Origin: Minisyncoccota bacterium
GTDB lineage: Bacteria; Patescibacteriota; Minisyncoccia; Phycocordibacterales; UBA2135
Direction of reading: 5' to 3'
Assembly (NCBI GenBank): GCA_040879685.1
Contig: JBBDJW010000012.1
Coordinates: 14,233 to 78,232 of the forward strand
Length of the DNA: 64,000 bases
Shown here: positions 11,369-58,161 of the stretch, in pieces
Layout of the letters: each line of letters starts with the position of its first letter
How positions within the stretch are numbered: the stretch's first letter is position 1
Notes under the pieces: generated by a model
Seen by the model: only the letters and a program-made list of their open reading frames with translations
Told to the model about the DNA's origin: nothing
Database searches by the model: none
Program-made: the position numbers and the translations under genes

Positions 11369-12124
11369 ATGATTTCAAATATCTTTTTCACCACCCTTTA
11401 CCAACCAATCTACAATAGTTTGGTTTTTTTGGTGTCCTTTATGCCGTTTTATGACATTGGGCTTGCGGTTGTTCTCCTTACTTTAGTTGTTAAATTTATA
11501 CTCTTTCCTCTTGCACATAAAACAACAAAAACACAGGCCTCTATAAAAGTTTTTGAACCCGAAGTTCAAAGACTAAAAGAAGAATATAAAGAAGACAAGC
11601 AAGAGCAGTCGCGAAAGATTATGGAGTTGTATAAAAAACATGGAGTGAATCCATTTTCAGGTTGTCTCTTATTTCTTGTTCAATTCCCCATCATCATTGC
11701 TCTTTATTGGGTTTTTTGGAAGGGATTGGAGAATGGAATCAATACAGAACAACTTTATTCTTTTGTTATTGCTCCAGCAAAAATATCAACTGACTTTCTT
11801 GGCCTCATTGATATTTCCGGGAGAAGTTTTTTCCTTGCAGCACTTGCTGGCATTTCTCAGTATTTTCAAATTAAACTTTCAATGCCCTCCACTCTCCCCA
11901 AAAAAGAGGGAGCCCCCGCTTCTTTTAAAGAAGATTTTAAAAGAAGTTTCCAGCTTCAAATGCGCTACGGCCTTCCGGTTTTTGTTTTTTTTATTGCTTA
12001 CACCATATCGGCCGTCATAGCCCTCTATTGGCTAACCTCAAACCTTTTTTCTATTGTGCACGAACTTTTTGTAAAAAGAAAAGTTACACAACTTTTATCA
12101 AACAAAGAAGAAGGAGTGGTATAA
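11369..12124 (+). CDS. yidC: Membrane protein insertase YidC/Oxa1 family (short form)
   Basis: Multi-TM protein with the YidC C-terminal motif (YWLTSNLFSIV) in conserved operon context. Confidence 0.85.
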   Translation: MISNIFFTTLYQPIYNSLVFLVSFMPFYDIGLAVVLLTLVVKFILFPLAHKTTKTQASIKVFEPEVQRLKEEYKEDKQEQSRKIMELYKKHGVNPFSGCLLFLVQFPIIIALYWVFWKGLENGINTEQLYSFVIAPAKISTDFLGLIDISGRSFFLAALAGISQYFQIKLSMPSTLPKKEGAPASFKEDFKRSFQLQMRYGLPVFVFFIAYTISAVIALYWLTSNLFSIVHELFVKRKVTQLLSNKEEGVV

Positions 12125-13201: not shown

Positions 13202-14446
13202 CTATTCCAACTTCAGTCGCCATAGGGTACCGTCTTTTTTATTTTGAAACAACAAAAAGCGTTCCTCCACATCAAGCTCTAGATTAATTACATCAAAAGA
13301 ATTGTTTAATGACTCTTGTGTTACTTGGGAAACAGAACCTCTTTCTACATCAAGTTGCCATATCTCATCACTAAAGGAGACTACCCCCCTATACCAATCA
13401 TCAGGATATAATGCCTTCTCTGGCGCTTGCGGCACCGCACAAAATGCCCTCTGAGGGCTTACCCTGCTCCACACACACTTCTCCGGTAGTGTGGCAAGGG
13501 GGAAAACTAGACTGTTTCCGCTCTCTCTATTATAGGAGATGATTCTAGAGAGGGTTTGCCCACGCATCTCTCCATAGAGGATGTTTCGCCCATCAAAAGA
13601 GGGTTGTGTGGTAAGCCCGGGAATGTTGTTTAAAAGAGGCACGATTCGTTCATTTGATAGGGTGAGAAGAATGCTCTGCCCCAAAACACCATTTGATGGT
13701 TTTGTGGTAAGAATAATTTGATTTTCTGTAGGCCAACCAACCAACCACTCTTTAAATGGGTGAGCAAAAACCTGCTCCTTGTCTCCGTTCTTTATATTTA
13801 AAATTGTACCAATCACAATATCACCAAAAGATCTAAGAGAGAACACCTTATCTCGCTCTGGTGAAAGAGTAAGAGCCTCTATATTCTCTTCCAAAAATTC
13901 TCCCTCCAAGCTTCCCACACCACTCTCCCCCCCCACAATGTTTCCCATAAATGTTTTTATAACTTCGCCGTCTAAATATTGGACGAGAAGTCTCTTCTCG
14001 TCATCACTCCACAACACTCTCTTTAGCGCCAGAAGGGTAGTGTTGGTAAGACGAACCTTTTCTAAGGTTTCTGGGTTTACCTCAAAAATATTGCCTGTTG
14101 TTTGTTCAACATACCTCACAGTCAAATGTTCCTTCTCGTCTTCACCAATGCGGTGAAACGATGCCCCCACCACCGGTGTACTTGAAAGCTGGAGCAGAGC
14201 ATTTCCCTCTCCTGCCTGCCCCGCAAGGGGTCCATCTTCTAACCCGTCTCCGTCTTGAGAGGGATCGCTTTGTGGAGGTCTTCGCACAGGCTCATCTGCG
14301 CCACCTCCTCCAAATGGAATAAAGTCGCGCAAGACTTCAACGGGCGTTTTGTCCTCTCGCGGGGCGATAATAAAGGCGGCAACAAAAATCCCTATTGCTA
14401 TGAGTGTTAAAATACCTATTATAATAAATGAAATTTTACGGGGCAT
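13202..14446 (-). CDS. Membrane-anchored extracytoplasmic protein; N-terminal TM, Pro/Gly-rich linker, possible beta-propeller body
   Basis: TM helix FIIIGILTLIAIGIFVAAFII followed by a low-complexity linker. No catalytic motifs were recognised. It is the first gene of the minus-strand secretion cluster. Confidence 0.45.
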   Translation of the reverse strand: MPRKISFIIIGILTLIAIGIFVAAFIIAPREDKTPVEVLRDFIPFGGGGADEPVRRPPQSDPSQDGDGLEDGPLAGQAGEGNALLQLSSTPVVGASFHRIGEDEKEHLTVRYVEQTTGNIFEVNPETLEKVRLTNTTLLALKRVLWSDDEKRLLVQYLDGEVIKTFMGNIVGGESGVGSLEGEFLEENIEALTLSPERDKVFSLRSFGDIVIGTILNIKNGDKEQVFAHPFKEWLVGWPTENQIILTTKPSNGVLGQSILLTLSNERIVPLLNNIPGLTTQPSFDGRNILYGEMRGQTLSRIISYNRESGNSLVFPLATLPEKCVWSRVSPQRAFCAVPQAPEKALYPDDWYRGVVSFSDEIWQLDVERGSVSQVTQESLNNSFDVINLELDVEERFLLFQNKKDGTLWRLKLE

Positions 14447-14452
14447 ATGAAT

Positions 14453-15190
14453 TTAATATAATTTGTCTATCTCTGCTTTATCAGCACACGTCGAAGCCCT
14501 ATCTGTGTCTTCCGCGGCTGCGATGCATTTATCAAGATCATTTCCAAAACAAAATAAAGAACCTGACCCTGTTTTTTTATAACAAAAATTAATATCAAGA
14601 ACACCTTGGTCTGTGATATTTTTACAAGTAAAGGTGGGCTCGTTGGTTGCGTTGTTTGCAACGTCTGCCACTCCTAGACATTCTTGCGCTGTTTGGTAAC
14701 AGTTTTGGTTAGTGGGGGTTTCTCCAATAGTGATTAAACAATATTTTTTATCAGAAGGAATATCAATGCTCCCAACATCATCAGGTGTCTCTATCGCGGG
14801 GACAGTTATTTTAAACACATCAATATTAAACTTAAGCAATTCGGGGTTAATTGTTTGCAAGATAAGCACCGATGAGCTTATAAGCACAAGGCCGATAACC
14901 GCGGACCATATTCGTTTTAGTGCGGCACTTTTATCGGTAATCGCTTCACTTAACATATATTGCATACCGCCCACAACAACCATAACAACCGCTAAAACAA
15001 TAGTTACACCAATAAGAAGTTTAAAAAGCTGTGTCAAATAACCCCCTAACCCAACCTCCCTTAGATCAATCTCATCTAGTGGAGCAAGGGGGGTATAGTC
15101 AATTGCGAAAACAGGAAGTGCAACGAAAAAGAAAAGAGCACATGAGAGTGAAAAAAAGGAAACAAAGTGTTTTTTTATAAAGGCAATCAT
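14453..15190 (-). CDS. Pilin-like membrane protein of the T4SS-like cluster (signal/TM, second TM, Cys-rich exposed C-terminal domain)
   Basis: Two hydrophobic helices in VirB2/TrbC-like topology, and at least 8 Cys in the C-terminal about 90 aa. Confidence 0.4.
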   Translation of the reverse strand: MIAFIKKHFVSFFSLSCALFFFVALPVFAIDYTPLAPLDEIDLREVGLGGYLTQLFKLLIGVTIVLAVVMVVVGGMQYMLSEAITDKSAALKRIWSAVIGLVLISSSVLILQTINPELLKFNIDVFKITVPAIETPDDVGSIDIPSDKKYCLITIGETPTNQNCYQTAQECLGVADVANNATNEPTFTCKNITDQGVLDINFCYKKTGSGSLFCFGNDLDKCIAAAEDTDRASTCADKAEIDKLY

Positions 15191-15191
15191 A

Positions 15192-16226
15192 TTAATTTCC
15201 TAAGCGAGAGGCCTCTCCAAATGTTATAGATAAAAAACGACGCACTTCTTGAAGGAAGTTATTTCTATTTGTAATTTTAAGTCCAATACGAGAACGGCCA
15301 GCCTCCTCCGGTTTTCTAAGGGTGATTTCTTGCCCTAAAGCACCTGTAATTTCTTTTCCATTGAGCAACCATGTAAATACTAAATTACTACCCACATCTT
15401 CTTGTGAAAAAAAATATGGTTCAGCGTGGAGTGTGATTTCATCAGGGAAAAAAGAATATTCTCCGCCAAGTGCTCTTTCAGAAAGGACTCCTCGTAAAGG
15501 GTGTTTTTCATAAAAGAAAATTTCCGGCTCTTGAGGAGAAAGAGTTAGAGAGGCTTCTCCACGGAGAGACCCTCCAAAAGAAGAGATGGCAACAGAGAGA
15601 TCCATTTCTTGAAACAGCGAAGGACCTGTTATGGTGAGCGTTTGTTTTCCAAACCCAGAAAGGCTTCCCAACACTCTTCCGTTACGAGACCATGTATACA
15701 CGAGCCCTTGTGGATTTAAAAACGAAACACCGTCCACACTAAACCACGGTAGTGCAGTAACAACAATTTTATTATCTGTTGTTAAAAGTGCCTTTCCTTT
15801 ATAAAAGGCAGGAGTATAGGTGTTGCTCTCCCATAAAAGAGAGACAAGTGTTGGAGTAAAACGAATTTCTTCGTTTAGTACAACACCTTCCGGCGTTGTC
15901 GCAGTAACTGAAACGCGGGTTTCTTCACCGACCTCACCCACTTTTATAGTGATTTTCTTTACCCCAACTCCTGATGTAAAAAGAGTGCCATTAACGAACC
16001 AGCGAAGCGTTGCTCTGTTAAGGTCCACACTAAAGCTCTCCACATTTATAAACACCTCTTCTTGAGGGGCAGGTACTTGTGGGAAGAATTTTATAATAAA
16101 GTTTTGTTGAGGAATTTGGGCGAAAAGAGAGTGAGATGAAAAAAGAAAACCAAAAAAGAAACCACAAAGCAATGACAGGGTTGCTGAAAGGATGCGTTTA
16201 TTTCTTTTACTATAGAGAAGGGGCAT
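15192..16226 (-). CDS. Secreted or membrane-anchored protein of the T4SS-like cluster
   Basis: N-terminal signal/TM (LSLLCGFFFGFLFSSHSLFA) with a beta-rich body and no recognised enzymatic motif. Confidence 0.45.
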   Translation of the reverse strand: MPLLYSKRNKRILSATLSLLCGFFFGFLFSSHSLFAQIPQQNFIIKFFPQVPAPQEEVFINVESFSVDLNRATLRWFVNGTLFTSGVGVKKITIKVGEVGEETRVSVTATTPEGVVLNEEIRFTPTLVSLLWESNTYTPAFYKGKALLTTDNKIVVTALPWFSVDGVSFLNPQGLVYTWSRNGRVLGSLSGFGKQTLTITGPSLFQEMDLSVAISSFGGSLRGEASLTLSPQEPEIFFYEKHPLRGVLSERALGGEYSFFPDEITLHAEPYFFSQEDVGSNLVFTWLLNGKEITGALGQEITLRKPEEAGRSRIGLKITNRNNFLQEVRRFLSITFGEASRLGN

Positions 16227-16243
16227 AATTACAGCTTATCACA

Positions 16244-18061
16244 CTACTCATTTGTTTGTTTGTGTTCCTGGCGCGTTTTTTTAAGTGATAAAATCTCGGA
16301 GGGGTCGGAGGTAATAATTTGGTCTTCCGTATACGAGGCAATAATTTTTATTGCAACATGTTTAAGTCCGGCAAAAAAGATTCCCTCTCCCACATCGGAT
16401 TCAAGAAGAAGATATTTTTCTTCATCTGTTAAATTGAAGGTTTTCTGAACTGTATCAACCGTTGTGGGAGATTGTTTAAGAAGAAGCTGTATTGAAGAGT
16501 TGTTTATAATAGGTTCGCCATATTCTGATTTCAGGAAGTCACCAACATCCTGTGTGATCGTGGCGAGGCCAAGATAGTATTTTCGTCCTCGCTTAGCAAG
16601 GCTATAGAGGAACGAAGCAGTGTCTTTTTGTTTCATCATCCACCATGCCTCATCAATTACCAAAAGCCTTTTCTTGAGTTCTTGGCGGATTGTGTTCCAG
16701 ATAAAGTGCATTACAATATACATTGCCACCGGCTTCAACTCGTCCTCCATATCACGAACAGAGAAGACCACAAATCGTTTATTAATATCAACATTGGTTG
16801 GTCGGTTTAAAAAGCCCTCCCAAGTACCTTTTGTGTATTTAATAAGCCTTGCGGAGAGTGATCCTGCTCCATCCATTCCCGCAAGAACCAGTTCAAAATC
16901 AGAAAGAAGAGGTGCTTCAATTTTTGAAAAATCAGACTCGGGGGTAATGTCTTTAAGTGCGTATGTTTCCGTAATAGCGCGGTCAATAACAGAGTCTTCC
17001 TCAGGACTAAGCCCTCCAAGCATAATTCGGAAAAGTCCAACAAGACTTACAATATTTGAACGGAGAACATCAGCAGGAGACTCATCTTCACGTACAGGAG
17101 GGAGGTCAAAAGGGTTAATATGATGCTCCGACGTGAGGGAGACATTGAAATATCTCCCCCCCGTTGCTTCGGCCAAGTATTCATATTCTTTTTCAGGGTC
17201 AATTACCAAGACATCTATGTCAAACATCAAGGAGCGAAGAATTTCTAATTTTGTTGCGTACGACTTACCAGACCCTGATGTTGCAAACATCAGAGAGTTA
17301 TAGTTGGGCATTGAAAAACGGTCAAAGAGCACCAAGCTTGTGTTGTGTCTGTTTACACCGTAAAGAATTCCTCTATCTGAAGTGAGATCAAAGGAGACAA
17401 AAGGGAAAAAACTTGAAAGTGGTGAGGAGTTTAGTTTTGAATGAATCGAGAGTGAATCATGCCCCACCGGCAACACACTGGTGAACCCTTCTTCTTGTTG
17501 AAAGAGGGCGGGACGCAGGTAGATAAGCTTTGTCTCAAGAAGTGATTTAATTTCTTGTTCAAGCTTATCAAGTGCTCGCTCATCATCTGCATAAATAGTG
17601 ATATAGAGCCCAACGTTGAAAAGTTTTTCCTGCGCTTGTTGGAGTTTATCGCGAAGCGACTCAAGATCTTGATACGCGATATCAAGCACAGGGTCTCTCA
17701 CCAACCCTTTTTCTTCGCGGATAGAAATTTGACTTTGCACTTCAGCAACTTTTTTTTGAAAATCCCGTAGCGCGCGAGAAGTGTCTATTGGGTGGATGAA
17801 CAGCGAGATATCAAAGACCTTGTCTAAGTTAATTATAGGAGAGAGCCAGTTATCATTAAGATACCGTGGGTATGAAATTGCAAAGAAGGTTCGGGCAGTT
17901 TTATCTCCCAAATGCAGTTCCTTGGGGCTTATTTTAAGGGCGGCCGGAGCAATAATATCTCTCAACTCTAATACCCCCGCCTCATAGATGTCTTGCGGTA
18001 AAATCGGAGAAATCTCTGCCGTATCTTTTTTTCTTCCTAGTAATGTGTCTAATAATCCCAT
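16244..18061 (-). CDS. VirB4/TrbE/PrgJ-type conjugal-transfer ATPase, C-terminal ATPase part; in frame with the upstream ORF across a single TAA
   Basis: Walker A ATSGSGKSYATK and Walker B RLLVIDEAWWMM, with VirB4-like C-terminal organisation. Confidence 0.75.
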   Translation of the reverse strand: MGLLDTLLGRKKDTAEISPILPQDIYEAGVLELRDIIAPAALKISPKELHLGDKTARTFFAISYPRYLNDNWLSPIINLDKVFDISLFIHPIDTSRALRDFQKKVAEVQSQISIREEKGLVRDPVLDIAYQDLESLRDKLQQAQEKLFNVGLYITIYADDERALDKLEQEIKSLLETKLIYLRPALFQQEEGFTSVLPVGHDSLSIHSKLNSSPLSSFFPFVSFDLTSDRGILYGVNRHNTSLVLFDRFSMPNYNSLMFATSGSGKSYATKLEILRSLMFDIDVLVIDPEKEYEYLAEATGGRYFNVSLTSEHHINPFDLPPVREDESPADVLRSNIVSLVGLFRIMLGGLSPEEDSVIDRAITETYALKDITPESDFSKIEAPLLSDFELVLAGMDGAGSLSARLIKYTKGTWEGFLNRPTNVDINKRFVVFSVRDMEDELKPVAMYIVMHFIWNTIRQELKKRLLVIDEAWWMMKQKDTASFLYSLAKRGRKYYLGLATITQDVGDFLKSEYGEPIINNSSIQLLLKQSPTTVDTVQKTFNLTDEEKYLLLESDVGEGIFFAGLKHVAIKIIASYTEDQIITSDPSEILSLKKTRQEHKQTNE

Positions 18062-18067
18062 AATTTT

Positions 18068-18760
18068 TTATTGCTCTTTACCCCTTTCTCGTTCCATAGG
18101 AATTGGCTTCTCAAGCTCTCCTGGGTTAAAAATACGGTAATAAAGCTCAACCAACTCTTCTGTATGAAGTGGGGCTACACGAAGCCCTGTACTTGCAAGC
18201 CCCTGCTCAACCACCCCTGCCCGTTGTTCAAGTTGCGTTCGTGCCTCCTCAAATCGTTCTTGTTCATTTTTAACATCCACCTTCTTTTTTGCTGGTAAGA
18301 ATTTAGTAAAAAAACCTCCTTGGGTATTAAGTGTTGCCCGTTGATAGGGGACAACAATAAAAAAAGTTTTTTTCATAATATTTACGCTTTCGGTAAATTT
18401 TTTCACAAAATTTATATATTCAGTTACCTGTATTTTCATCAAATCAGAGGATTGATCCTTTCTCCTCTCCTCTAAAAGGGCAATGTAGGGTCGTATATCC
18501 AACTCTCGTGATTGAGTAAAAATTTGTAACGAGAAATCTAAGGAGTTCAGAAAGCTTTGAAACTGTTGCAGAATAGCTCGCTGTTCCTCTTCTGATTTCA
18601 GCGCAAGATTGTGTGATGAGGTCATCAAAACCATTCTTAAAGAGCCGTCCTTGAGAATGACGACGCCATTTTTTATTTCTTTTATGGGAACGAAATTTTG
18701 TGCTGGTTCAGCCATAGGTTGGTGAATAGTTAGTATCTTAGTGGGTAGGTTTGTTCGCAA
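18068..18760 (-). CDS. VirB4-family N-terminal domain, separated from the ATPase part only by an in-frame TAA
   Basis: The pattern ILKDGSLRMVLMTSSHNLALKSEEEQ resembles the VirB4/TrbE N-domain. The stop at 18068-18070 is followed by two codons and then the ATG of the downstream ORF in the same frame. Confidence 0.6.
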   Translation of the reverse strand: MRTNLPTKILTIHQPMAEPAQNFVPIKEIKNGVVILKDGSLRMVLMTSSHNLALKSEEEQRAILQQFQSFLNSLDFSLQIFTQSRELDIRPYIALLEERRKDQSSDLMKIQVTEYINFVKKFTESVNIMKKTFFIVVPYQRATLNTQGGFFTKFLPAKKKVDVKNEQERFEEARTQLEQRAGVVEQGLASTGLRVAPLHTEELVELYYRIFNPGELEKPIPMERERGKEQ

Positions 18761-18781
18761 ATTGGTGTGTTATATATGGTA

Positions 18782-19249
18782 TTACGAGGAGTGCCTTGCT
18801 TCATTGCTTTGTGCGTAGATACTGTCATGGACATCAAGACTCCATGAAATATCTTTAAGCTTGCTATCGGAGAGTCTGGGAACAAAAAGCGAAGAAGCCA
18901 CCTGCTTTTCTTGTTTAGGGGTAATTTTTTTATCTTGCCTCTTCCAGATATAAAGTTTTCCAGTCATGAGAAAACGAAAGAAGGACTCTAAAAGAGCGAT
19001 AAAGGGGCGATTATTTACTTTATAAAAAGCAAGTGCAAGTGCGAGCGCTCCAACGGGAGCGATAACCAAAATCGCAATAAAGAGGGGTAAAAGAGAATAA
19101 GCAAGAAATGCCATTGCCGCCCCACCGGCAAGATAAATAAATTGCTTGAAGGTGAAGGGACCAAAAATTTTATTTTCTACTTCTATAAATTGTGGTACTT
19201 GAAAACGCATACTGTTTATGTGGCTTGTGGTAGATAACTTTTTGCACAA
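18782..19249 (-). CDS. PrgI-family (VirB3-like) small membrane protein
   Basis: VPQFIEVENKIFGPFTFKQFIYLAGGAAMAFLAY matches the PrgI-family N-terminal signature and is followed by two TM helices. The gene lies directly upstream of VirB4, as in Gram-positive T4SS. Confidence 0.55.
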   Translation of the reverse strand: MCKKLSTTSHINSMRFQVPQFIEVENKIFGPFTFKQFIYLAGGAAMAFLAYSLLPLFIAILVIAPVGALALALAFYKVNNRPFIALLESFFRFLMTGKLYIWKRQDKKITPKQEKQVASSLFVPRLSDSKLKDISWSLDVHDSIYAQSNEARHSS

Positions 19250-19422
19250 GCACCTTATTTTGATTTTCTTACTATCCTCCGACCCCCTTTCTTTTTTCGG
19301 TGCAGTTCCTCAATCTAGTTAAGTATAACAGATAAACTCAACCTTCTTAACTGTGATAGTGTCCCCAACCACTCTTTTTATGGCTTTGTGACATATGTTT
19401 TGATTGAAGGATTCCTCTACAA

Positions 19423-20382
19423 CTATTCAATGGGTTCTCTGTATGGATCTGCCGCGTACTCTTTCTTATCAGGCTTCTTTTCTTGAGATACTTGTCCCTC
19501 CTCATCTGCGTGCTCTGAGGGTGCCTTCTTTGGTTGTGGTGTTGGTGCACGAGGAGTCTCTTCTTTTTGAGTTTGTGGAGGTGCTTCTTCTTTGCTCTCC
19601 TGCGGGGTATCTGTTTGTTTTTCTTCTCTTGCCGATGGAGCTTGTAACCCTCGTCCTTCTTTTTTTATAGGAAGGTTTAGAGGAGGTTTTTCTTTGTTTA
19701 TTTTCACGAGGACTTTCTTTTGGGACTCTATGTCCTGGACCTCTTTTTCTTCTTCTCCCACATTGCTTTGTATTTTTATATCACGAAGCCTGTCGGGTAT
19801 GATGACATTCTCTTCCCCCTCAAACGAGCCCTCCTCTCCTCGCGGGTCCAAGGGCTCGTTCTTTTTGGGAGTGACAACAAGCGGTTCGGGCGCTTTGTTT
19901 TCAAGGCCGGATTTTTCTTTTTCCAGTTCGGGCTCTACGCGCTCTTCCATCCCTTTTTTTATTTCATGTTTAACGGGAATTTTTCTTTTTGGGAGAGGAA
20001 CTTGATAGGCATCTTCACTCTCCCTTTCAGAGGGAAGCGGCTGGTTTTCCCTCCTTTCTTTTTTTAGGGAGTGAATCTCTTTCAATGATTCACGAATAGG
20101 GTGAAAAACTTCTTTATTAACATCTTCCGCAATTGCACGCGCCTTTTCCCTCTCAACGCCTATTCGCTTGGCAAGATTACTAATAAATTCATTGGGGTGT
20201 GTAAGGCCAAGTATTACAAAAGTTGTTTCATCCACTAATCCACCCAAGGCATCTACATGAAGATTGTGTCTTTTTCCTATTTTTTCAAGCGCATCAAATA
20301 CCTCTGTTGAAGCAGCAGCAGTTTGTATGTCTTGAGGTAGTTTTTTTATAAATTCTTTTATTGTTGCAGAGTTTTTGTCCAT
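19423..20382 (-). CDS. Hypothetical protein with a Glu/Pro/Lys-rich low-complexity C-terminal half
   Basis: The long ORF has good codon structure but no recognisable motif. The dense antisense ORFs in the track are low-complexity artefacts. Confidence 0.45.
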   Translation of the reverse strand: MDKNSATIKEFIKKLPQDIQTAAASTEVFDALEKIGKRHNLHVDALGGLVDETTFVILGLTHPNEFISNLAKRIGVEREKARAIAEDVNKEVFHPIRESLKEIHSLKKERRENQPLPSERESEDAYQVPLPKRKIPVKHEIKKGMEERVEPELEKEKSGLENKAPEPLVVTPKKNEPLDPRGEEGSFEGEENVIIPDRLRDIKIQSNVGEEEKEVQDIESQKKVLVKINKEKPPLNLPIKKEGRGLQAPSAREEKQTDTPQESKEEAPPQTQKEETPRAPTPQPKKAPSEHADEEGQVSQEKKPDKKEYAADPYREPIE

Positions 20383-20399
20383 AGTCTCATTGGTGTGTT

Positions 20400-22250
20400 T
20401 TACTCAGTATCCTTATCGTCTTTTTTATCATCATCACTTTCGTCTTTCTTTTTCTCTGTCGGCTTTGATTTAATTGTTTTCGCCTCTTGCCGTAATGTTT
20501 TTATTTCCCCCCTAATTTTTTCTTTTTTCTTGTCAAGTTCCTCTTTTTTCTTGTCAAGTTCCTCCTCTAGGTTTTCTAGGCGACCCAACTCCTCTAGTTC
20601 AGCGACAGTTACTTTCTCACCTCTTTCTTCTTTACTATGAAGGTCACTACTATAGCTTGATAGTTTTTCGTAGTTTGATTTGATTCCATTCTTTAATTCC
20701 CTTTCTTCTTTTTCTAATTCTTTTTCTTCTGACTCCTTTATCTTAAGTATAAGTTGGGTTGCCGCAACCGTTCTATTTCGGAAGATGTCCCCCAAAGGAC
20801 TTCGTGGAGAGAGGACATTTTTAATATAATCCTCATCCTTATCTCCTCCGATAGATTTCGCAAAGGCAACACGTTCCTCAATCTTAGTGTCCAATTCCTT
20901 CTCATACCCTCCCTTTCCTAGTGCCTTTCCCATACCAGTGATTGATTTGCCGGCGACCTTTGCACTACGAGCATCATAGCTGGCAGTTGCCAAGCTACGA
21001 GTTCCCTGAAGAAGCGTTCCGGCAACACGACCTTTGATCGCCGCTTTTTGAAACCTTTCACTGCTTGCAAGTATGCTGGCTCCTCGTCCGAGGAGTTGCC
21101 GCCCGCCAATTCCCACTGCTCCGAATGTAAGAGCGCCGGTCGTCGCCTTTGCTGTTTTCATCACCGTCTCTGCTCCCATTAAACCAAATTGTTTTGCGAG
21201 TATATACGAGCCATAGATAAGAGCGATGACGATAGCAAACTGAAAGAGCACCGCAAAGAATGAAACTCCACCGACATCACCGGCAAACCAGCCGGCAACA
21301 GCACCCGAGAAACTCAAATCTTCTTCACCAACGCCCGGGAGCAGGCTTCCTGTGCCTATAATCATCACCGTCAATGTTATAAGAAGAATATAAGCGGGCG
21401 CATAAAAAGAGTATTTTAAGAGATGGCTCCACCACAGATTATAATACTTCTCTGTCCCGGGGAGAATTCTGGCGACAAATGCAAGAGGCGAGAGCACCAT
21501 TAAAAACATCAACATTACCGAACGGACAATAAACATTATCGCCGCAGTTCCAAAAGAAAAGACGGCGATGAGCGTAGCTATCGTTCCTACAATGTAAACG
21601 GTGAAAAGCCTACTCGGGTTCAAAACAAATGCCCCTGCAGTACCCCCGAGACCCTCAACACCTTCATTTACAATAGTTTGCAGACGAAGGCCATTCGCAA
21701 GACTTGCTGACAACCCCCCCTCGGCGGTTATTTGCTCATAAAACGCAACGGCAAAAATATTTGACGCATCAATTACAAGTTTTGTGAAGAAAAGGCTGAA
21801 GTTAACAAGAAGTGCAACGACAACGAGCGAGGTAAGAATTTTCTTTGTTTCAAAGCCTCCCGCCTGAAGAATGGTCATTATGGAAATATAAACGAGGATA
21901 AAAACAAAAACAACATTAGAAAGATCGCGCACAGCTCCCCACGCGACATTAACTGCCCCGACAGAGAGGCTGTTAATGTCTAATGAAAAAGTAATGCTTG
22001 TATCAAGAAGCCACGCACTCGCCGTGAGGATAAGGCCGGAAAGGTTGAATAGTCCTTCCGCAAGAAGATTTGGTATTAAAAGCGCAAACGCCTTAAGACC
22101 CCCTACAATATCAAGAGGGTTGGCAAACACAAAAGAGTCCGGAAGAGGGGCAAGAAAAAGGAAGAGTATAAATATCACAAACCACGAAGTGTGTCTTGGT
22201 GAGAACTTCTTTGGCAGTCTATATGCAATGTTTTGTAGTAGTCGCTTCAT
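20400..22250 (-). CDS. Polytopic membrane protein, VirB6/TrbL-like, with a C-terminal charged coiled-coil tail
   Basis: At least 8 predicted TM helices across about 450 aa, then a KELEKEE...KKDESDDDKKDD tail. Its size and position are typical of a VirB6 analogue. Confidence 0.5.
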   Translation of the reverse strand: MKRLLQNIAYRLPKKFSPRHTSWFVIFILFLFLAPLPDSFVFANPLDIVGGLKAFALLIPNLLAEGLFNLSGLILTASAWLLDTSITFSLDINSLSVGAVNVAWGAVRDLSNVVFVFILVYISIMTILQAGGFETKKILTSLVVVALLVNFSLFFTKLVIDASNIFAVAFYEQITAEGGLSASLANGLRLQTIVNEGVEGLGGTAGAFVLNPSRLFTVYIVGTIATLIAVFSFGTAAIMFIVRSVMLMFLMVLSPLAFVARILPGTEKYYNLWWSHLLKYSFYAPAYILLITLTVMIIGTGSLLPGVGEEDLSFSGAVAGWFAGDVGGVSFFAVLFQFAIVIALIYGSYILAKQFGLMGAETVMKTAKATTGALTFGAVGIGGRQLLGRGASILASSERFQKAAIKGRVAGTLLQGTRSLATASYDARSAKVAGKSITGMGKALGKGGYEKELDTKIEERVAFAKSIGGDKDEDYIKNVLSPRSPLGDIFRNRTVAATQLILKIKESEEKELEKEERELKNGIKSNYEKLSSYSSDLHSKEERGEKVTVAELEELGRLENLEEELDKKKEELDKKKEKIRGEIKTLRQEAKTIKSKPTEKKKDESDDDKKDDKDTE

Positions 22251-22300: not shown

Positions 22301-23662
22301 TTACTCGCTACGCCTTTCAATTTCTGCTATAAGTGCATTTATTTCACTAAGCTCTTCTTGTGCAGACGCGAGGTCATTTGCATGTGTTTCTCCTTTGAAC
22401 CCATCAAATTCTTTTGAAATGGTGTTTATCTCCTCTAGAGATTCCGCGTTGATGGTTTGTGTTTTTAGGGTGTTTAACTTGGTGAGAACAGGATAAGTCT
22501 CAATCAAATCTTCTCTAAGAGGTGTTCTTAGGTTTTTAATTTCCCACGCTTTTTGAGCCCTGAAGAAGGAAAGAGATGGCTTACCTTCGAGATTTTTGAG
22601 TTTTTCTTCCGCTTCATCAAGCGCCACCAACGAACTATTTTTTGTGTTTTGATAGGTTTCCTCATTGTCTATATAGACATCTATGATACGGACAACTCCG
22701 TCGCGTGAGCGGGTGAGAGTATCAAGGTCTTCTGTTGGAACTTCTGTGTTTCCACCCCCCCTGCGCGAATCATCACCGCTCTTAAGAAGCCCCTTCGCAC
22801 CAACAAATATCTCATCTATAAGTTTTCCAAGAAGAGCATTTACTACTTCACCAATACTGTCTGCAAGGTTAAGCTGGTCAATGTCGCTCTCGACTGTGAG
22901 TTTTTTAATCCTATCCCGTACAAGACTTCCCGGGGTGATAGTTTCAGAATCAGTACACTCACCTTCTTCATTTCTGGCTTTGCACTTTTGAGAGCTTAAA
23001 AATCCACTTGCCCAATCAAGCTCTCGCTCTGTATTTTGCGCTTGTTGGCGAAGAAGGCTATTGAGCTCTGTACTGCTCTTTGCATATTGCCCATAAATGG
23101 TGTTTTGAGAGTTGGTAATTTGCCTTCTCCACACATCCCATCCACCGCGTCTGAAATCTTGATGATAATCGTCCAAAACTTCCTGCGCAATAGTGCGCGT
23201 ATCCGTAACCCTTCTCTCTCCGGCGCAGGGGCGCGCCGCTAAGAGTGAGCGAGCAATGACACGCTTTTCTTCTGGAGAATAGCTCGTATCATCGCCAAGT
23301 TTGTCCATGAAGCGATTAAATGTTTGCGTACAAATGAACGCAAAATACGCGTCTTTGTTTGTTATGTAAAGCGGGTTGCCGTCAAAGCCGTTGTTTATCC
23401 AGTTGATTGTCTGCTGGGTAATTTGCGCGACAAGGGCCTTCGCGACTGCCCATGCGATACCGTCAAGAACCTCTTCTCTGAAGGACTCCTCCAACATTTG
23501 GATGAAATTTGAAAAATCAAAAGTAGGCCAACCCCCAGCCTCTACTTCCTGTGGTTTTATTAAAAAGGAGCTCGGAAGCAGAAAGACAACCAAGAGCAGA
23601 ACCACAAGTATTTTTTTAGAAAGATTTTTTTTCATAAGCCGCTGACTCATTGTGTGTTCCAC
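22301..23662 (-). CDS. Secreted protein with signal peptide (T4SS-like cluster)
   Basis: N-terminal signal (ILVVLLLVVFLLPSSFLI). No enzymatic motif recognised. Confidence 0.45.
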   Translation of the reverse strand: MEHTMSQRLMKKNLSKKILVVLLLVVFLLPSSFLIKPQEVEAGGWPTFDFSNFIQMLEESFREEVLDGIAWAVAKALVAQITQQTINWINNGFDGNPLYITNKDAYFAFICTQTFNRFMDKLGDDTSYSPEEKRVIARSLLAARPCAGERRVTDTRTIAQEVLDDYHQDFRRGGWDVWRRQITNSQNTIYGQYAKSSTELNSLLRQQAQNTERELDWASGFLSSQKCKARNEEGECTDSETITPGSLVRDRIKKLTVESDIDQLNLADSIGEVVNALLGKLIDEIFVGAKGLLKSGDDSRRGGGNTEVPTEDLDTLTRSRDGVVRIIDVYIDNEETYQNTKNSSLVALDEAEEKLKNLEGKPSLSFFRAQKAWEIKNLRTPLREDLIETYPVLTKLNTLKTQTINAESLEEINTISKEFDGFKGETHANDLASAQEELSEINALIAEIERRSE

Positions 23663-24591
23663 ACATATCCTGCCTCGTGCTCCTTAAACTCAACACCCTT
23701 GTTCTTAAAAAAAAGGGAGAGAGAGGCAAGAGATTGTTGCATTTCCCCAAGAGCATTACGATACTCATCAAAACTAAACTTTCCTAAAATGGCATCTTTG
23801 TGAACGCGGCTCATTCCTGTAAGAGAGTTAGCAGTTTTTTTATATGAGTTTACAAGCTGGAGAAATATGCCAACGCTTTCACTCGGGACAGAGAGAGTTA
23901 AGATATCTTTTGCAAGTCCATCAAACACAACAGATTGCTCCTGAATTTTATCGGCAAATTCCGGGAGAGAATTAAGAGCAAGTGTCTCAAAAAGAGAAAG
24001 AACCTCCTGTACGTTGATTGCTGGGTTGGCTTGTAGCTGTGTAGCGAGGATGTTTCCAAAAGCACGTAACTCATCATTTGTCGTGTTATGGGCGATTGTC
24101 ATATCATCTCGCGTATATTGAGCAATGTCAGGTTTTTCTAACTGGTGCACGAGATTAGAAATAATCTCATCTTCATCTTGGAAGTTGTCACCTTGGCTGA
24201 TATTTAACGAACTTACAAAGAGAGATTTTGCAAACTTTTCGGTAAGATTACCACTTTCTGATTGGAAGAAGAAAGATTCTTCTATGCCATATTTTTTTGT
24301 AATTTCTTCTCCATCATACAAAGAAAGATCTCCGCCGAATTGTATGTAGTCATTCACACCGTCTCCGTCGGTGTCGGGGTTGTTTTTGTCGCTTCCCACA
24401 AGCACCTCCTCCCAATCCTTAAGCCCATCGCCGTCACTGTCCTCTTGAAAAAAGGACAGCTCACCCTCGGAAACATAAAAAGAACCTTCTTTATTCTTCC
24501 CAAAGGTGTCTTGCTCACCCCCTTTTACCAGAACAGCTCCCGTTAGCAAAAGAAGAGAAAATCCAATCGCGATAAATAAGTTTTTTTCCAT
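23647..24591 (-). CDS. Secreted protein with thrombospondin type-3-like Ca-binding repeats (DxDxDG)
   Basis: Signal peptide; DSDGDGLKDWEE and DTDGDGVNDY motifs. Confidence 0.5.
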   Translation of the reverse strand: MEKNLFIAIGFSLLLLTGAVLVKGGEQDTFGKNKEGSFYVSEGELSFFQEDSDGDGLKDWEEVLVGSDKNNPDTDGDGVNDYIQFGGDLSLYDGEEITKKYGIEESFFFQSESGNLTEKFAKSLFVSSLNISQGDNFQDEDEIISNLVHQLEKPDIAQYTRDDMTIAHNTTNDELRAFGNILATQLQANPAINVQEVLSLFETLALNSLPEFADKIQEQSVVFDGLAKDILTLSVPSESVGIFLQLVNSYKKTANSLTGMSRVHKDAILGKFSFDEYRNALGEMQQSLASLSLFFKNKGVEFKEHEAGYVWNTQ

Positions 24592-33854: not shown

Positions 33855-33885
33855 AGATAATTTTTAGTGTAGCAGAACTCCAACA

Positions 33886-33963
33886 AAAAAACGAACCCAG
33901 CCCCAGTTTTATGAAAAAGAAATTTCAATCTCTTAAAACTGGGGCTGGGTTCGTTTTTTTTTA
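33886..33963. terminator. Long hairpin (21-bp perfect stem AACGAACCCAGCCCCAGTTTT/AAAACTGGGGCTGGGTTCGTT, about 25-nt loop) flanked by A/T runs; terminator for the NYN gene and insulator between the NYN gene and pnp
   Basis: The inverted repeat and T-run were read directly from the sequence. Confidence 0.55.
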
Positions 33964-34962: not shown

Positions 34963-35050
34963 CGTACGTGCTACTATATCAAAAACATCACCATAAGTCA
35001 AGTTTTTGTCAAAAAAGCCCAAATCCCCCGTGTTATACTTCGGAAGTATA

Positions 35051-35076
35051 ACACGACGCGATTGAGCGCCGTCTGT
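35051..35076. repeat. 26-bp palindrome GTGTTATACTTCGGAAGTATAACACG (copy 1 of 2 identical copies)
   Basis: An identical 26-mer is also at 43168-43193. It belongs to the CTTCGGAAG/CTTCCGAAG-core palindrome family. Confidence 0.6.
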
Positions 35077-35152
35077 AACTTTCGGAAAGTTACAGACATA
35101 ATTTAGACTAAACCCTTGAAAAACAACGCTATTTGGAGGTTGGATTACCCCA

Positions 35153-35183
35153 CCGCCTGTGCACTTCCGAAGTGCACAGGCGG
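35153..35183. repeat. 31-bp perfect palindrome CCGCCTGTGCACTTCCGAAGTGCACAGGCGG
   Basis: Same CTTCCGAAG core as the 26-mer. A hybrid half-site ATACTTCCGAAGTGCA occurs at 12362-12377. Confidence 0.55.
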
Positions 35184-35238
35184 TTGGGTGTCCAGTTTCT
35201 AGTACCCTAACAACCTAAAACCTGATAAGCTAAAGGTA

Positions 35239-36156: not shown

Positions 36157-36163
36157 CTTGACT

Positions 36164-36230
36164 CCCACGCTGAAATGTATGAAGTTTTAGGAAACGCGCC
36201 TTCGGCGCATCATATATTTCAGCGTTGGGG
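36164..36230. repeat. About 67-nt structured repeat element, copy A (outer stem CCCACGCTGAAATGTATGA/TCATATATTTCAGCGTTGGGG enclosing a GCGCC-UUCG-GGCGC hairpin)
   Basis: It is about 85% identical to the reverse complement of the element at 49926-49994. Confidence 0.6.
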
Positions 36231-36259
36231 TTGACAACATTTTCTATATCTTGTAGAAT
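36231..36259 (+). promoter_or_regulatory. Sigma70-like promoter (TTGACA - 17 bp - TAGAAT) upstream of the NUDIX gene
   Basis: Consensus -35 at 36231-36236 and near-consensus -10 at 36254-36259. Confidence 0.55.
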
Positions 36260-36293: not shown

Positions 36294-36992
36294 ATGAATA
36301 CACTCTGTTCTTACAAAAGGGAGGATGCAGTTCCTCCTCCTGGGGCAATGGAAAATGATTACCCCTCGCGTGCCTCCTCAATTATTTGTTTTCACTTTAT
36401 AGAAGGGAGGCTTTGTGTCAAAGCTGTTCTTCAGAGAAGGAGAGAGAAGGAAAATAAATGGGGCCTTCCCGGAGGTAAACGCCAGATGATTAGGGTTAGG
36501 GAAAGATGGGAGAGCCCAATTGAAAACGCAATACGGGAGACCAAAGAAGAGACAGGATATGTCTTTCCTCCTGAAGCACTCTACGAGCTTCCTGTTTATG
36601 AGAAAGTTGACGAGTACGGGATGCCGTACAACCACCACCTTTTTGTGGGGATGTTTGCGAGCGTTTCTGCCCACGACAAAAAGCTCGTCTTTATGGAGGA
36701 AATCGCAAAGCAGGACTGGTTTGATGTTCTCTCGGTCATTACACAAGAAGACCGAAGGATGCTCTCATATCACGCCAGGCATGTCGCGGTAGCGCTTCGT
36801 GCTGTCTTTGAGGCTAAGATGGATAGTCTCCCTCGTGACATGGTGAGGGAGTTTGCTAGTGAAATTAAGCATTCTCTCTCATCAAAAGAAGAGCGTGAGA
36901 AAAAGACCGAGTACATTAAATCTCTCGGCGAGGTGTGGGAGAAGGATGAGTACATCACTTCTCTTGAACGCATCGCACCCTCTGATTTTTGA
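36294..36992 (+). CDS. NUDIX hydrolase
   Basis: Nudix box GLPGGK...PIENAIRETKEETGY. The start may instead be the internal Met at 36348. Confidence 0.7.
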   Translation: MNTLCSYKREDAVPPPGAMENDYPSRASSIICFHFIEGRLCVKAVLQRRREKENKWGLPGGKRQMIRVRERWESPIENAIRETKEETGYVFPPEALYELPVYEKVDEYGMPYNHHLFVGMFASVSAHDKKLVFMEEIAKQDWFDVLSVITQEDRRMLSYHARHVAVALRAVFEAKMDSLPRDMVREFASEIKHSLSSKEEREKKTEYIKSLGEVWEKDEYITSLERIAPSDF

Positions 36993-49862: not shown

Positions 49863-49925
49863 GCTAGATACCAGATCCTAGTCTCTAGACTCCAGCCTCC
49901 ATTTTTAGCTCCTAGAGCAGGGCTT

Positions 49926-49994
49926 GCCCCCACGCTGAAATATATGATGCGCCGGAGGCGCGTTTGTTAAAAACTCATATACTTCAGCGTGGGG
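49926..49994. repeat. About 69-nt structured repeat element, copy B (inverted orientation relative to copy A at 36164-36230)
   Basis: The sequence is CCCCACGCTGAAATATATGA-TGCGCCGGAGGCGCG-...-TCATATACTTCAGCGTGGGGG. It is about 85% identical to the reverse complement of copy A. Confidence 0.6.
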
Positions 49995-50116
49995 GCTTGC
50001 GCGCTTATCTATCCCTAGTATAATAGCCACATAGAGGTTATATCCTTTATTAATTTATAAGAAAGTTCCCCTGCCTCCTGATGAGTAATTTTTCAAGGGC
50101 AGGACAATATACATAT

Positions 50117-50398: not shown

Positions 50399-50443
50399 GG
50401 ATTTATCCTTTTTCTCGGTTTGTACCAAAGTAGTACAGCCAAT

Positions 50444-50478
50444 AAAACAAAACCCCCTTTAAAAGGGGGTTTTGTTTT
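50444..50478. terminator. Bidirectional rho-independent terminator (AAAACAAAACCCCCTTT/AAAGGGGGTTTTGTTTT)
   Basis: Perfect GC-cored stem flanked by A/T runs on both sides, between convergent hup and the 50513-50857 gene. Confidence 0.65.
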
Positions 50479-50512
50479 ATTGGCTGTTGGTTCAGTGCAA
50501 GAGATTTAAAAG

Positions 50513-57779: not shown

Positions 57780-57817
57780 ATCACATTGAGTTACATTGAA
57801 TGATAAGGACTTTCTCT

Positions 57818-57855
57818 ACAATACTCTCACATTCTCGAGAATGTGAGAGTATTGT
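57818..57855. repeat. 38-bp perfect palindrome ACAATACTCTCACATTCTCGAGAATGTGAGAGTATTGT between convergent pgk and the ArsR-like gene
   Basis: Read directly. It shares its core with the 58175-58214 palindrome. Confidence 0.55.
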
Positions 57856-57870
57856 AATTATTGTTTACGT

Positions 57871-58161
57871 TTACTTTTCTTTGGTGAATTTTTTTAGAAA
57901 AGTAACAAATAATTTTCCATAAGGAGAAAGGGTGTGCTCAACGCTTCTCCCTTTGTATTTTTTATCAAGAAGCCCCGCAGTAAGAAGTCTTTGAGTATGT
58001 CCTGAAATTGTTTTTTCGTTTGCGTTTAGTTTTTTAATGATTTCTTCAAGTGTAAGAGATGGATGTTTTTCAAGAAGTATGAGAACCTCCAAGCGCCAAT
58101 GATTTGCCGCGCCCTTGAAATATCTCTCCAACTTTTTCCCTTGTTTTATATTTTTCGCCAT
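57871..58161 (-). CDS. ArsR/SmtB-family winged-helix transcriptional regulator
   Basis: 96 aa; HTH region LTLEEIIKKLNANEKTISGHTQRLLTAGLL. Confidence 0.65.
   Translation of the reverse strand: MAKNIKQGKKLERYFKGAANHWRLEVLILLEKHPSLTLEEIIKKLNANEKTISGHTQRLLTAGLLDKKYKGRSVEHTLSPYGKLFVTFLKKFTKEK

Follow-up and report, generated by a model that had tools for sequence, protein, structure and literature searches.

Two inverted copies of a 69-nt element lie in the window, by which we mean the whole 64,000-nt (64 kb) stretch of DNA that was analysed, and we consider this element, with a probability of about 0.7, to be a MITE-like non-autonomous transposon. The element type, MITE, is known; what is new is a previously undescribed small transposon family, seen twice. 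The MITE-like reading is favoured because of the combination of terminal inverted repeats (TIRs), flanking duplications and an empty site in a relative. The preliminary description, made from the letters alone, had offered a small RNA gene family, a REP/MITE-like element and a protein-binding module as options for the repeat. The MITE-like part of the second option is supported by the TIRs, by flanking duplications of 4-5 bp and by an exact empty site in the relative L004. The host MAG, which carries the label Candidatus Paceibacterota (CPR/Patescibacteria), encodes, on a 78.5-kb contig, the RNase Y deposited as NCBI MEX0934077.1.

A repeat finder returned, as the longest inverted repeat in the window, arms at 36164-36230 and 49927-49993 (67 nt, 88% complementary). 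Refinement of the ends gave two copies of 69 nt each, copy A at 36162-36230 on the + strand (CTCCCACGC...GCGTTGGGG; our reference orientation) and copy B at 49927-49995 on the - strand (CCCCCACGC...GCGTGGGGG; inverted relative to copy A). Under a covariance model (CM) of the two copies they scored 97 and 99 bits, respectively. When the + strand of copy A was aligned with the - strand of copy B, 60 of the 69 columns were identical (87%, a divergence of 13%), which bears out the earlier estimate of two inverted copies with about 85% identity as reverse complements. An alignment that included the flanks showed this similarity to break off sharply at the ends of the outer stem. Likewise, a search of the window with the 19-mer of the outer arm, allowing up to 3 mismatches, matched the four arms only, and gave 0 matches in shuffled sequences. 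Independent Logan assemblies of run SRR27977663 contain both copies at 100% identity, so copies A and B are not an artefact of a single contig.

Both copies fold into a 21-bp outer stem that encloses the inner hairpin GCGCC-NNN-GGCGC together with an A/T-rich spacer. In copy A the two 21-nt TIRs occupy 36162-36182 and 36210-36230 and the inner hairpin, GCGCC-TTC-GGCGC, occupies 36196-36208 (+ strand for all three); 18 of the 21 TIR pairs are Watson-Crick and 2 more are G-T. In copy B, likewise given on the + strand, the TIR on the rny side lies at 49927-49947, the inner hairpin, GCGCC-GGA-GGCGC, at 49949-49961 and the TIR on the hup side at 49975-49995, with 20 of 21 pairs Watson-Crick. The outer stem, the GCGCC/GGCGC clamp and the A/T-rich spacer therefore stand as first described, but the UUCG loop does not, since the actual loops are 3 nt long (TTC in copy A, GGA in copy B). 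Predicted RNA minimum free energies on the + strand were -39.5 kcal/mol for copy A (z -7.1) and -52.5 kcal/mol for copy B (z -8.1), and DNA folding gave z scores of -9.7 and -10.3 for the two copies. The GC content of the element is 0.49-0.52, i.e. it is not AT-rich, and its 69 bp hold no ORF. Its arms are individually not self-complementary, and its non-palindromic interior is conserved between the copies.

Short direct repeats, identified by reading the sequence and with a flank-repeat script, bracket both copies as candidate target-site duplications (TSDs). At copy A the repeat TTGA lies on the left at 36158-36161 (TTGAC for a 68-nt element starting at 36163) and on the right at 36231-36234, where it makes up the first four bases of a -35 hexamer; the junctions read gcTTGA-CTCCCACGC...GCGTTGGGG-TTGAcaac. 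At copy B the repeat CTTG lies on the left at 49923-49926 (GCTTG with a 68-nt element) and on the right at 49996-49999, overlapping the -35-like TTGCGC; here the junctions read gggCTTG-CCCCCACGC...GCGTGGGGG-CTTGcgcg. Runs of C and G at the ends of the element allow two readings of the duplication, 4 bp with a 69-nt element or 5 bp (TTGAC, GCTTG) with a 68-nt element, and each reading is consistent across both copies. As a control, we placed 200,000 random 69-nt intervals in the window with 1 nt of slack at each end. Flank repeats of at least 4 nt were found at 4.7% of these random sites and repeats of at least 5 nt at 1.5%, so that both copies would be flanked in this way by chance with a probability of about 2e-3 to 2e-4.

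The closest retrievable relative (L004, Logan run SRR28149499), whose RNase Y is 85% identical and in which the order clpP-rny-hup is kept, has an intact empty site at the locus of copy B. It reads gagGGCTTGCGCa where the window reads GGCTTG-[element]-CTTGCGC, is uninterrupted at the junction (GGGCTTGCGC) and contains CTTG once, in GAGGGCTTGCGCACC...TATAAT. Its rny-hup spacer, ...taaggcgaGGGCTTGCGCaccagtgtatccctagTATAAT..., holds no hairpin. When the element and one CTTG were removed from the window, the junction aligned with L004 without a gap (GC-AGGGCTTGCGCGC against GCGAGGGCTTGCGCAC), and the alignment continued past the junction at ~80% identity up to the start of hup. The empty-site evidence covers copy B, in this one relative.

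The rny-hup spacer is indel-prone, since a second, unrelated indel is found there: 53 nt that are extra relative to L004 sit right after the rny stop at 49869-49921 (CTAGATACC...CTCCTAGA), with CTAGA at both ends. In a more distant relative (L005, RNase Y 74% identical), a different long inverted repeat, cgtgtatcgtgaaacg...cgttttacgatacacg, lies right after the rny stop at 11530-11605 of its contig, so that in several lineages the site behind rny draws in or keeps hairpins that are unrelated in sequence. Relatives share the gene order tig-clpP-rny-hup around copy B, and we rejected a composite transposon, or an inversion between the inverted copies, on this ground.

An orthologous site for copy A was sought in the relatives and none was found, because the NUDIX gene downstream is without a detectable homologue; the regions 3' of xerC could not be aligned. 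In those regions of the relatives the element is absent and ordinary terminators, each a hairpin with a T-run, are in place. A search of 5.8 billion proteins, limited in sensitivity, returned for the NUDIX ORF (36294-36992) no homologue but itself at E <= 1e-5. The xerC-cca interval differs among relatives, one of which (L009) has an Exo_endo_phos gene there, and the NUDIX slot is variable within otherwise conserved synteny. A recent foreign origin of the NUDIX gene was considered and found unsupported, the region being without compositional anomaly.

Gene coordinates agree with the earlier placement of the copies after xerC and after rny. Copy A begins 5 nt 3' of the stop (36156) of xerC, a XerC/D-type recombinase gene, and copy B lies 64 nt 3' of the rny stop (49862), upstream of hup. 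The copies are 13.7 kb apart, amid housekeeping genes. Since xerC, NUDIX, rny and hup are all on the + strand, copies A and B are oppositely oriented with respect to transcription, as is expected of insertion in random orientation and not of a cis-regulatory RNA. Both copies adjoin promoter-like sequence on the + strand. Upstream of the NUDIX ORF, TTGACA-17-TAGAAT (36231-36259) matches the consensus at 11 of 12 positions, and the first base of its TTGACA, 36231, directly follows copy A, exactly as had been claimed. The putative hup promoter, TTGCGC-16-TATAAT (49997-50024), is found as the same TTGCGC-16-TATAAT in L004; it is absent from the list of the consensus scan because its -35, TTGCGC, scores only 3/6. 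Promoter function of the NUDIX and hup sites is thus putative, as judged from consensus and from conservation in L004. That copy A ends where the -35 begins would be explained by insertion into the -35 hexamer, which the target duplication rebuilt.

Prokaryotic MITEs are 50-800 bp long, with TIRs of at least 10-15 bp and TSDs of 2-10 bp; they encode no transposase, are intergenic and give stable hairpin transcripts (PMC11602168; PMC10969869). The element fits this description in its size of 69 bp without an ORF (PMC11602168), in its 21-bp TIRs, in the duplications TTGA(C) at copy A and (G)CTTG at copy B, and, for copy B, in its presence or absence between relatives with an intact empty site in L004. 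In a MITE model, the TIRs would be bound by a transposase whose gene lies in another part of the genome, and insertion would take place at a staggered cut of 4-5 bp, the repair of which would leave the flanking duplication. Two such insertions would have survived in the window, in opposite orientations and each within the -35 hexamer of a promoter located right behind the upstream stop codon (xerC|NUDIX and rny|hup). Before insertion, a single base would have separated the xerC stop from TTGACA. In L004, 9 bases lie between the rny stop and TTGCGC. With gaps this short (1 base at xerC, 9 bases at rny in L004), there is almost no free intergenic DNA. The duplicated TTG would rebuild the hexamer downstream, at the correct spacing to the -10, and so leave the promoter intact; with the promoter spared in this way, even a very compact genome could tolerate the insertions.

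A side effect would be that read-through transcripts of xerC and rny gain a very stable 3' hairpin, which may cause pausing or termination or shield the 3' end, like the hairpins of other bacterial MITEs. By this analogy, the hairpin may affect read-through or 3'-end stability of the xerC and rny mRNAs as a consequence of insertion. The repeat, its TIRs, the flanking duplications, the empty site and the location in the -35 are observed; within this model, we infer the transposase, the promoter function and the effect at the RNA level. A parent that is IS1380-like, we presume, would fit both the 4-5 bp duplication and ends that start with CC. Several findings run against the MITE-like reading: only two copies are known, no further family member turned up in the databases searched, no transposase and no longer element with the same termini was found in the window, the single empty site lies in an indel-prone spacer, the element is not AT-rich, and the stems are nearly perfect despite the 13% divergence of the copies, which could hint at selection on the hairpin.

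That last finding is also one of the points in favour of a functional RNA hairpin, that is, a factor-independent terminator, an insulator or a stabiliser of xerC and rny 3' ends that was copied for its usefulness, its mobility being incidental. Both copies lie shortly 3' of stop codons, between co-directional genes that are otherwise without a terminator, both fold very stably, and long perfect hairpins are frequent in the intergenic regions of the host; hairpins of MITEs are known, moreover, to affect transcripts (PMC10969869). Against this, neither hairpin is followed by a U-run, as had already been remarked of the repeat, while other terminators in the window have one (33885-33960, 50435-50487). 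The L004 rny-hup site does without any hairpin, and the flanking duplications would be left unexplained. Compensatory changes were likewise not seen: 17 pairs of the outer stem are invariant between the copies, 3 are one-sided variants and 1 is a mismatch, and the number of pairs changed on both sides is 0/26, a count that comes from two sequences only and hence is uninformative on covariation. Each of the three one-sided transitions produces a G-U pair on the A(+)/B(-) strand; hand arithmetic puts the chance that they fall on the same strand, whichever of the two, at ~0.25, which is not evidence. We regard a hairpin-first origin as unlikely; a functional hairpin is better understood as something that insertion may have brought about than as a rival account of how the element arose.

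Returning to the MITE-like reading, both original targets contain GCTTG, within TTGACA and TTGCGC. The location in -35 hexamers may reflect a true target preference or survivorship in a compact genome, two sites being all there are. In a bolder form of this idea, the element would be a promoter-homing CPR MITE that prefers -35 hexamers, its duplication rebuilding the hexamer and its hairpin acting as an 'insulator' between a gene and the next promoter; we give this extended version little credence.

The same adjacency to promoters can be read as a protein-binding module, a palindromic operator with two 21-bp half-sites 27 bp apart through which one regulator would control both NUDIX and hup. 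Each copy adjoins a -35 hexamer, and the symmetric arms would present the same sequence to the promoter in either orientation. This option of the preliminary description is weakened by L004, in which the orthologous hup promoter is kept without the element. Conservation of the non-palindromic interior is not accounted for by an operator, nor are the flanking duplications, and the operator-like palindromes of the window are much shorter and contiguous (e.g. 57817-57856). We consider an operator quite improbable.

A REP/REPIN-type element, moved by a RAYT (an HUH tyrosine transposase), would likewise be an extragenic palindromic repeat 3' of genes, and the length is REPIN-like. The individual arms are not palindromic, however, the copies have flanking duplications, and the ORFs of the window contain no Y1 transposase domain. 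HUH transposition, to our knowledge, makes no flanking duplications. On these grounds membership in the REP/REPIN class is very unlikely. A family of independently transcribed small RNAs would explain a structured, repeated, intergenic sequence, but this option, too, is very unlikely, as no score came near any Rfam threshold, neither copy showed a promoter or terminator of its own nearby, the two copies point in opposite directions with respect to one another and to transcription with flanks that are not conserved, and the closest relative, L004, lacks the element. In the Rfam search nothing reached the gathering threshold, and the best matches in permissive scans were to models of generic hairpins (miRNA precursors), with 22-25 bits where 93-100 are needed.

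Within the 64 kb window and ~1.6 kb of extensions, the family is known from two copies only, both in a single lineage. Logan contigs extended the sequence beyond the window by ~1.4 kb and 0.23 kb, and neither extension holds a copy. With the covariance model, no third copy was detected in the window, in the extensions or in ~90 kb of relatives; a weak GC hairpin at L035:211-247 (E 0.26) was rejected as a family member. A longer element with the same termini was looked for in the window and none was found, and the terminal 12-mer, with up to 2 mismatches, occurs at 5 extra sites against 2.9 expected, which is about chance. Pfam identified no transposase or RAYT among the 50 ORFs of the window. 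Databases were searched with two-arm and single-arm patterns. Across GTDB, with one genome for each of 185,579 species, the two-arm pattern gave 0 matches and single arms gave 6 chance matches in unrelated phyla. Metagenome contigs from JGI gave 1 match, which falls within coding sequence on an AT-rich contig that is unrelated, and no family member; IMG/VR gave 19 single-arm chance matches and no family member; plasmid and phage collections gave noise only. Every match in GTDB, JGI and IMG/VR was to a single arm of 18 or 19 nt that had no partner arm, and came from taxa that are unrelated or from viral contigs. Logan contigs continue unbroken across both copies, and the way in which de Bruijn assembly works suggests that near-identical further copies are not abundant in the SRR27977663 sample.

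Other long perfect hairpins, whose stems measure 15-27 bp, are unusually frequent in the window. A perfect hairpin of 27 nt, GTGTTATACTTCGGAAGTATAACACGA, occurs in two identical copies at 35030-35056 and 43168-43194 with no obvious flanking duplication; additional genomic copies are probable, because L001 and the contig behind L035, both from Logan, break off at the first of them. The divergent rpsO-xerC spacer contains three successive perfect palindromes (35029-35055, 35071-35097 and 35152-35184) with TTCGGAA or TTCCGAA at their centres, and a GC-rich hairpin ~1.2 kb upstream of the window start (L035:214-244; CCACCTGCGCACC-TCCGA-GGTGCGCAGGTGG) resembles them. Palindromes of 34-40 nt (AATACTCTYAYATTCTCGAGAATRTRAGAGTATT) at 57817-57856 and 58175-58214 flank an ORF on the - strand (57871-58161; 96 aa, unannotated, no Pfam match), and differ from each other by symmetric substitutions that preserve the palindrome. 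A third, diverged copy lies at 41125-41158. From their arrangement, the palindromes around this ORF look like operators of a small regulator.

Two direct repeats were also found. An exact 49-nt repeat at 45037-45085 and 45241-45289 (204 nt apart, with ~155 nt between the copies) begins inside the 3' end of tRNA-Gly(TCC) (44984-45055) and resembles the attL/attR sites of a tRNA-integrated element; the interval is short and may be a remnant. A 38-nt repeat, 97% identical, at 2134-2171 and 2243-2280 (109 nt apart) covers the beginning of a YebC/TACO1-family gene (2245-2775) and the stretch immediately before it, a layout that suggests a duplicated 5' gene fragment. At ~14450-22250, ORFs match type IV secretion families (T4SS pilin, TraG/VirB4-like ATPase, TraC-like, PrgI and TrbL/VirB6-like), in several cases with scores under the Pfam cut-off, and do not match transposases; the ORFs on either side of this stretch, 13202-14446 and 22301-24591, have no such match. 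The genes dnaA-dnaN lie at 7.7-10.4 kb of the window.

Little is known of mobile DNA in CPR/Patescibacteria, the genomes of which are small and streamlined, and we found no description of MITEs in Paceibacterota/CPR in the searchable literature. If the element is a bona fide MITE, an active or recently active DDE-type transposase is implied in the lineage, and the element offers a handle on how insertions are tolerated where intergenic space is minimal. That both surviving insertions appear to rebuild their -35 box would illustrate the constraint that a compact genome imposes. Should promoter targeting be a real preference, the family would represent a mobile way to uncouple neighbouring transcription units.

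Among known systems, integron attC sites resemble the element in being imperfect palindromes of ~60-140 bp, and copy A adjoins a gene that NCBI names 'tyrosine recombinase/integron integrase'. Unlike attC sites, the element shows no RYYYAAC or GTTRRRY core sites by inspection and belongs to no cassette array. An attC site was thus rejected, the termini CCCCCACGC and GCGTGGGGG being without R''/R' cores and the two copies forming no array; the recombinase beside copy A is a conserved rpsO-linked XerC/D homologue present in all relatives. A dif/Xer site, a CRISPR and a retron were also rejected by inspection, with no core motifs, arrays or reverse transcriptase. Intrinsic (rho-independent) terminators share with the element a strong hairpin soon after a stop codon, but the element has no U-run, a much longer stem and a branched interior, is repeated at two loci and is missing from the orthologous site of a relative; in addition, the full element is not in the terminator-scan list, and its tails read TTGACAACAT and CTTGCGCGCT. 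Like REP/REPIN sequences with their RAYT, the element is an extragenic palindromic repeat 3' of genes with possible roles at mRNA 3' ends; unlike them, its arms are not self-palindromic, it has flanking duplications, its copy number is low and no RAYT was seen. Dispersed repeats that form a terminator-like hairpin 3' of genes (PMC10969869) are comparable in being small and dispersed, but the element lacks a U-tract, is bounded by clear 21-bp TIRs with duplications on its flanks, and is unrelated to them in sequence. Compared with known MITEs, the element resembles nothing that was found at the sequence level, comes close to the minimum size with its 69 bp, has a duplication of 4-5 bp and not TA, is not AT-rich as typical MITEs are, carries no detectable outward promoter or IHF site, and comes from a Paceibacterota (CPR) host, with only two copies and no partner IS known. 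Like bacterial MITEs such as the Correia element of Neisseria, MITEAba12, ERIC and RUP, it is short and non-coding, with TIRs and short target duplications, and it shares with them an intergenic position, often beside promoters, stable hairpin transcripts and a presence that varies between relatives (PMC10969869, PMC11602168).
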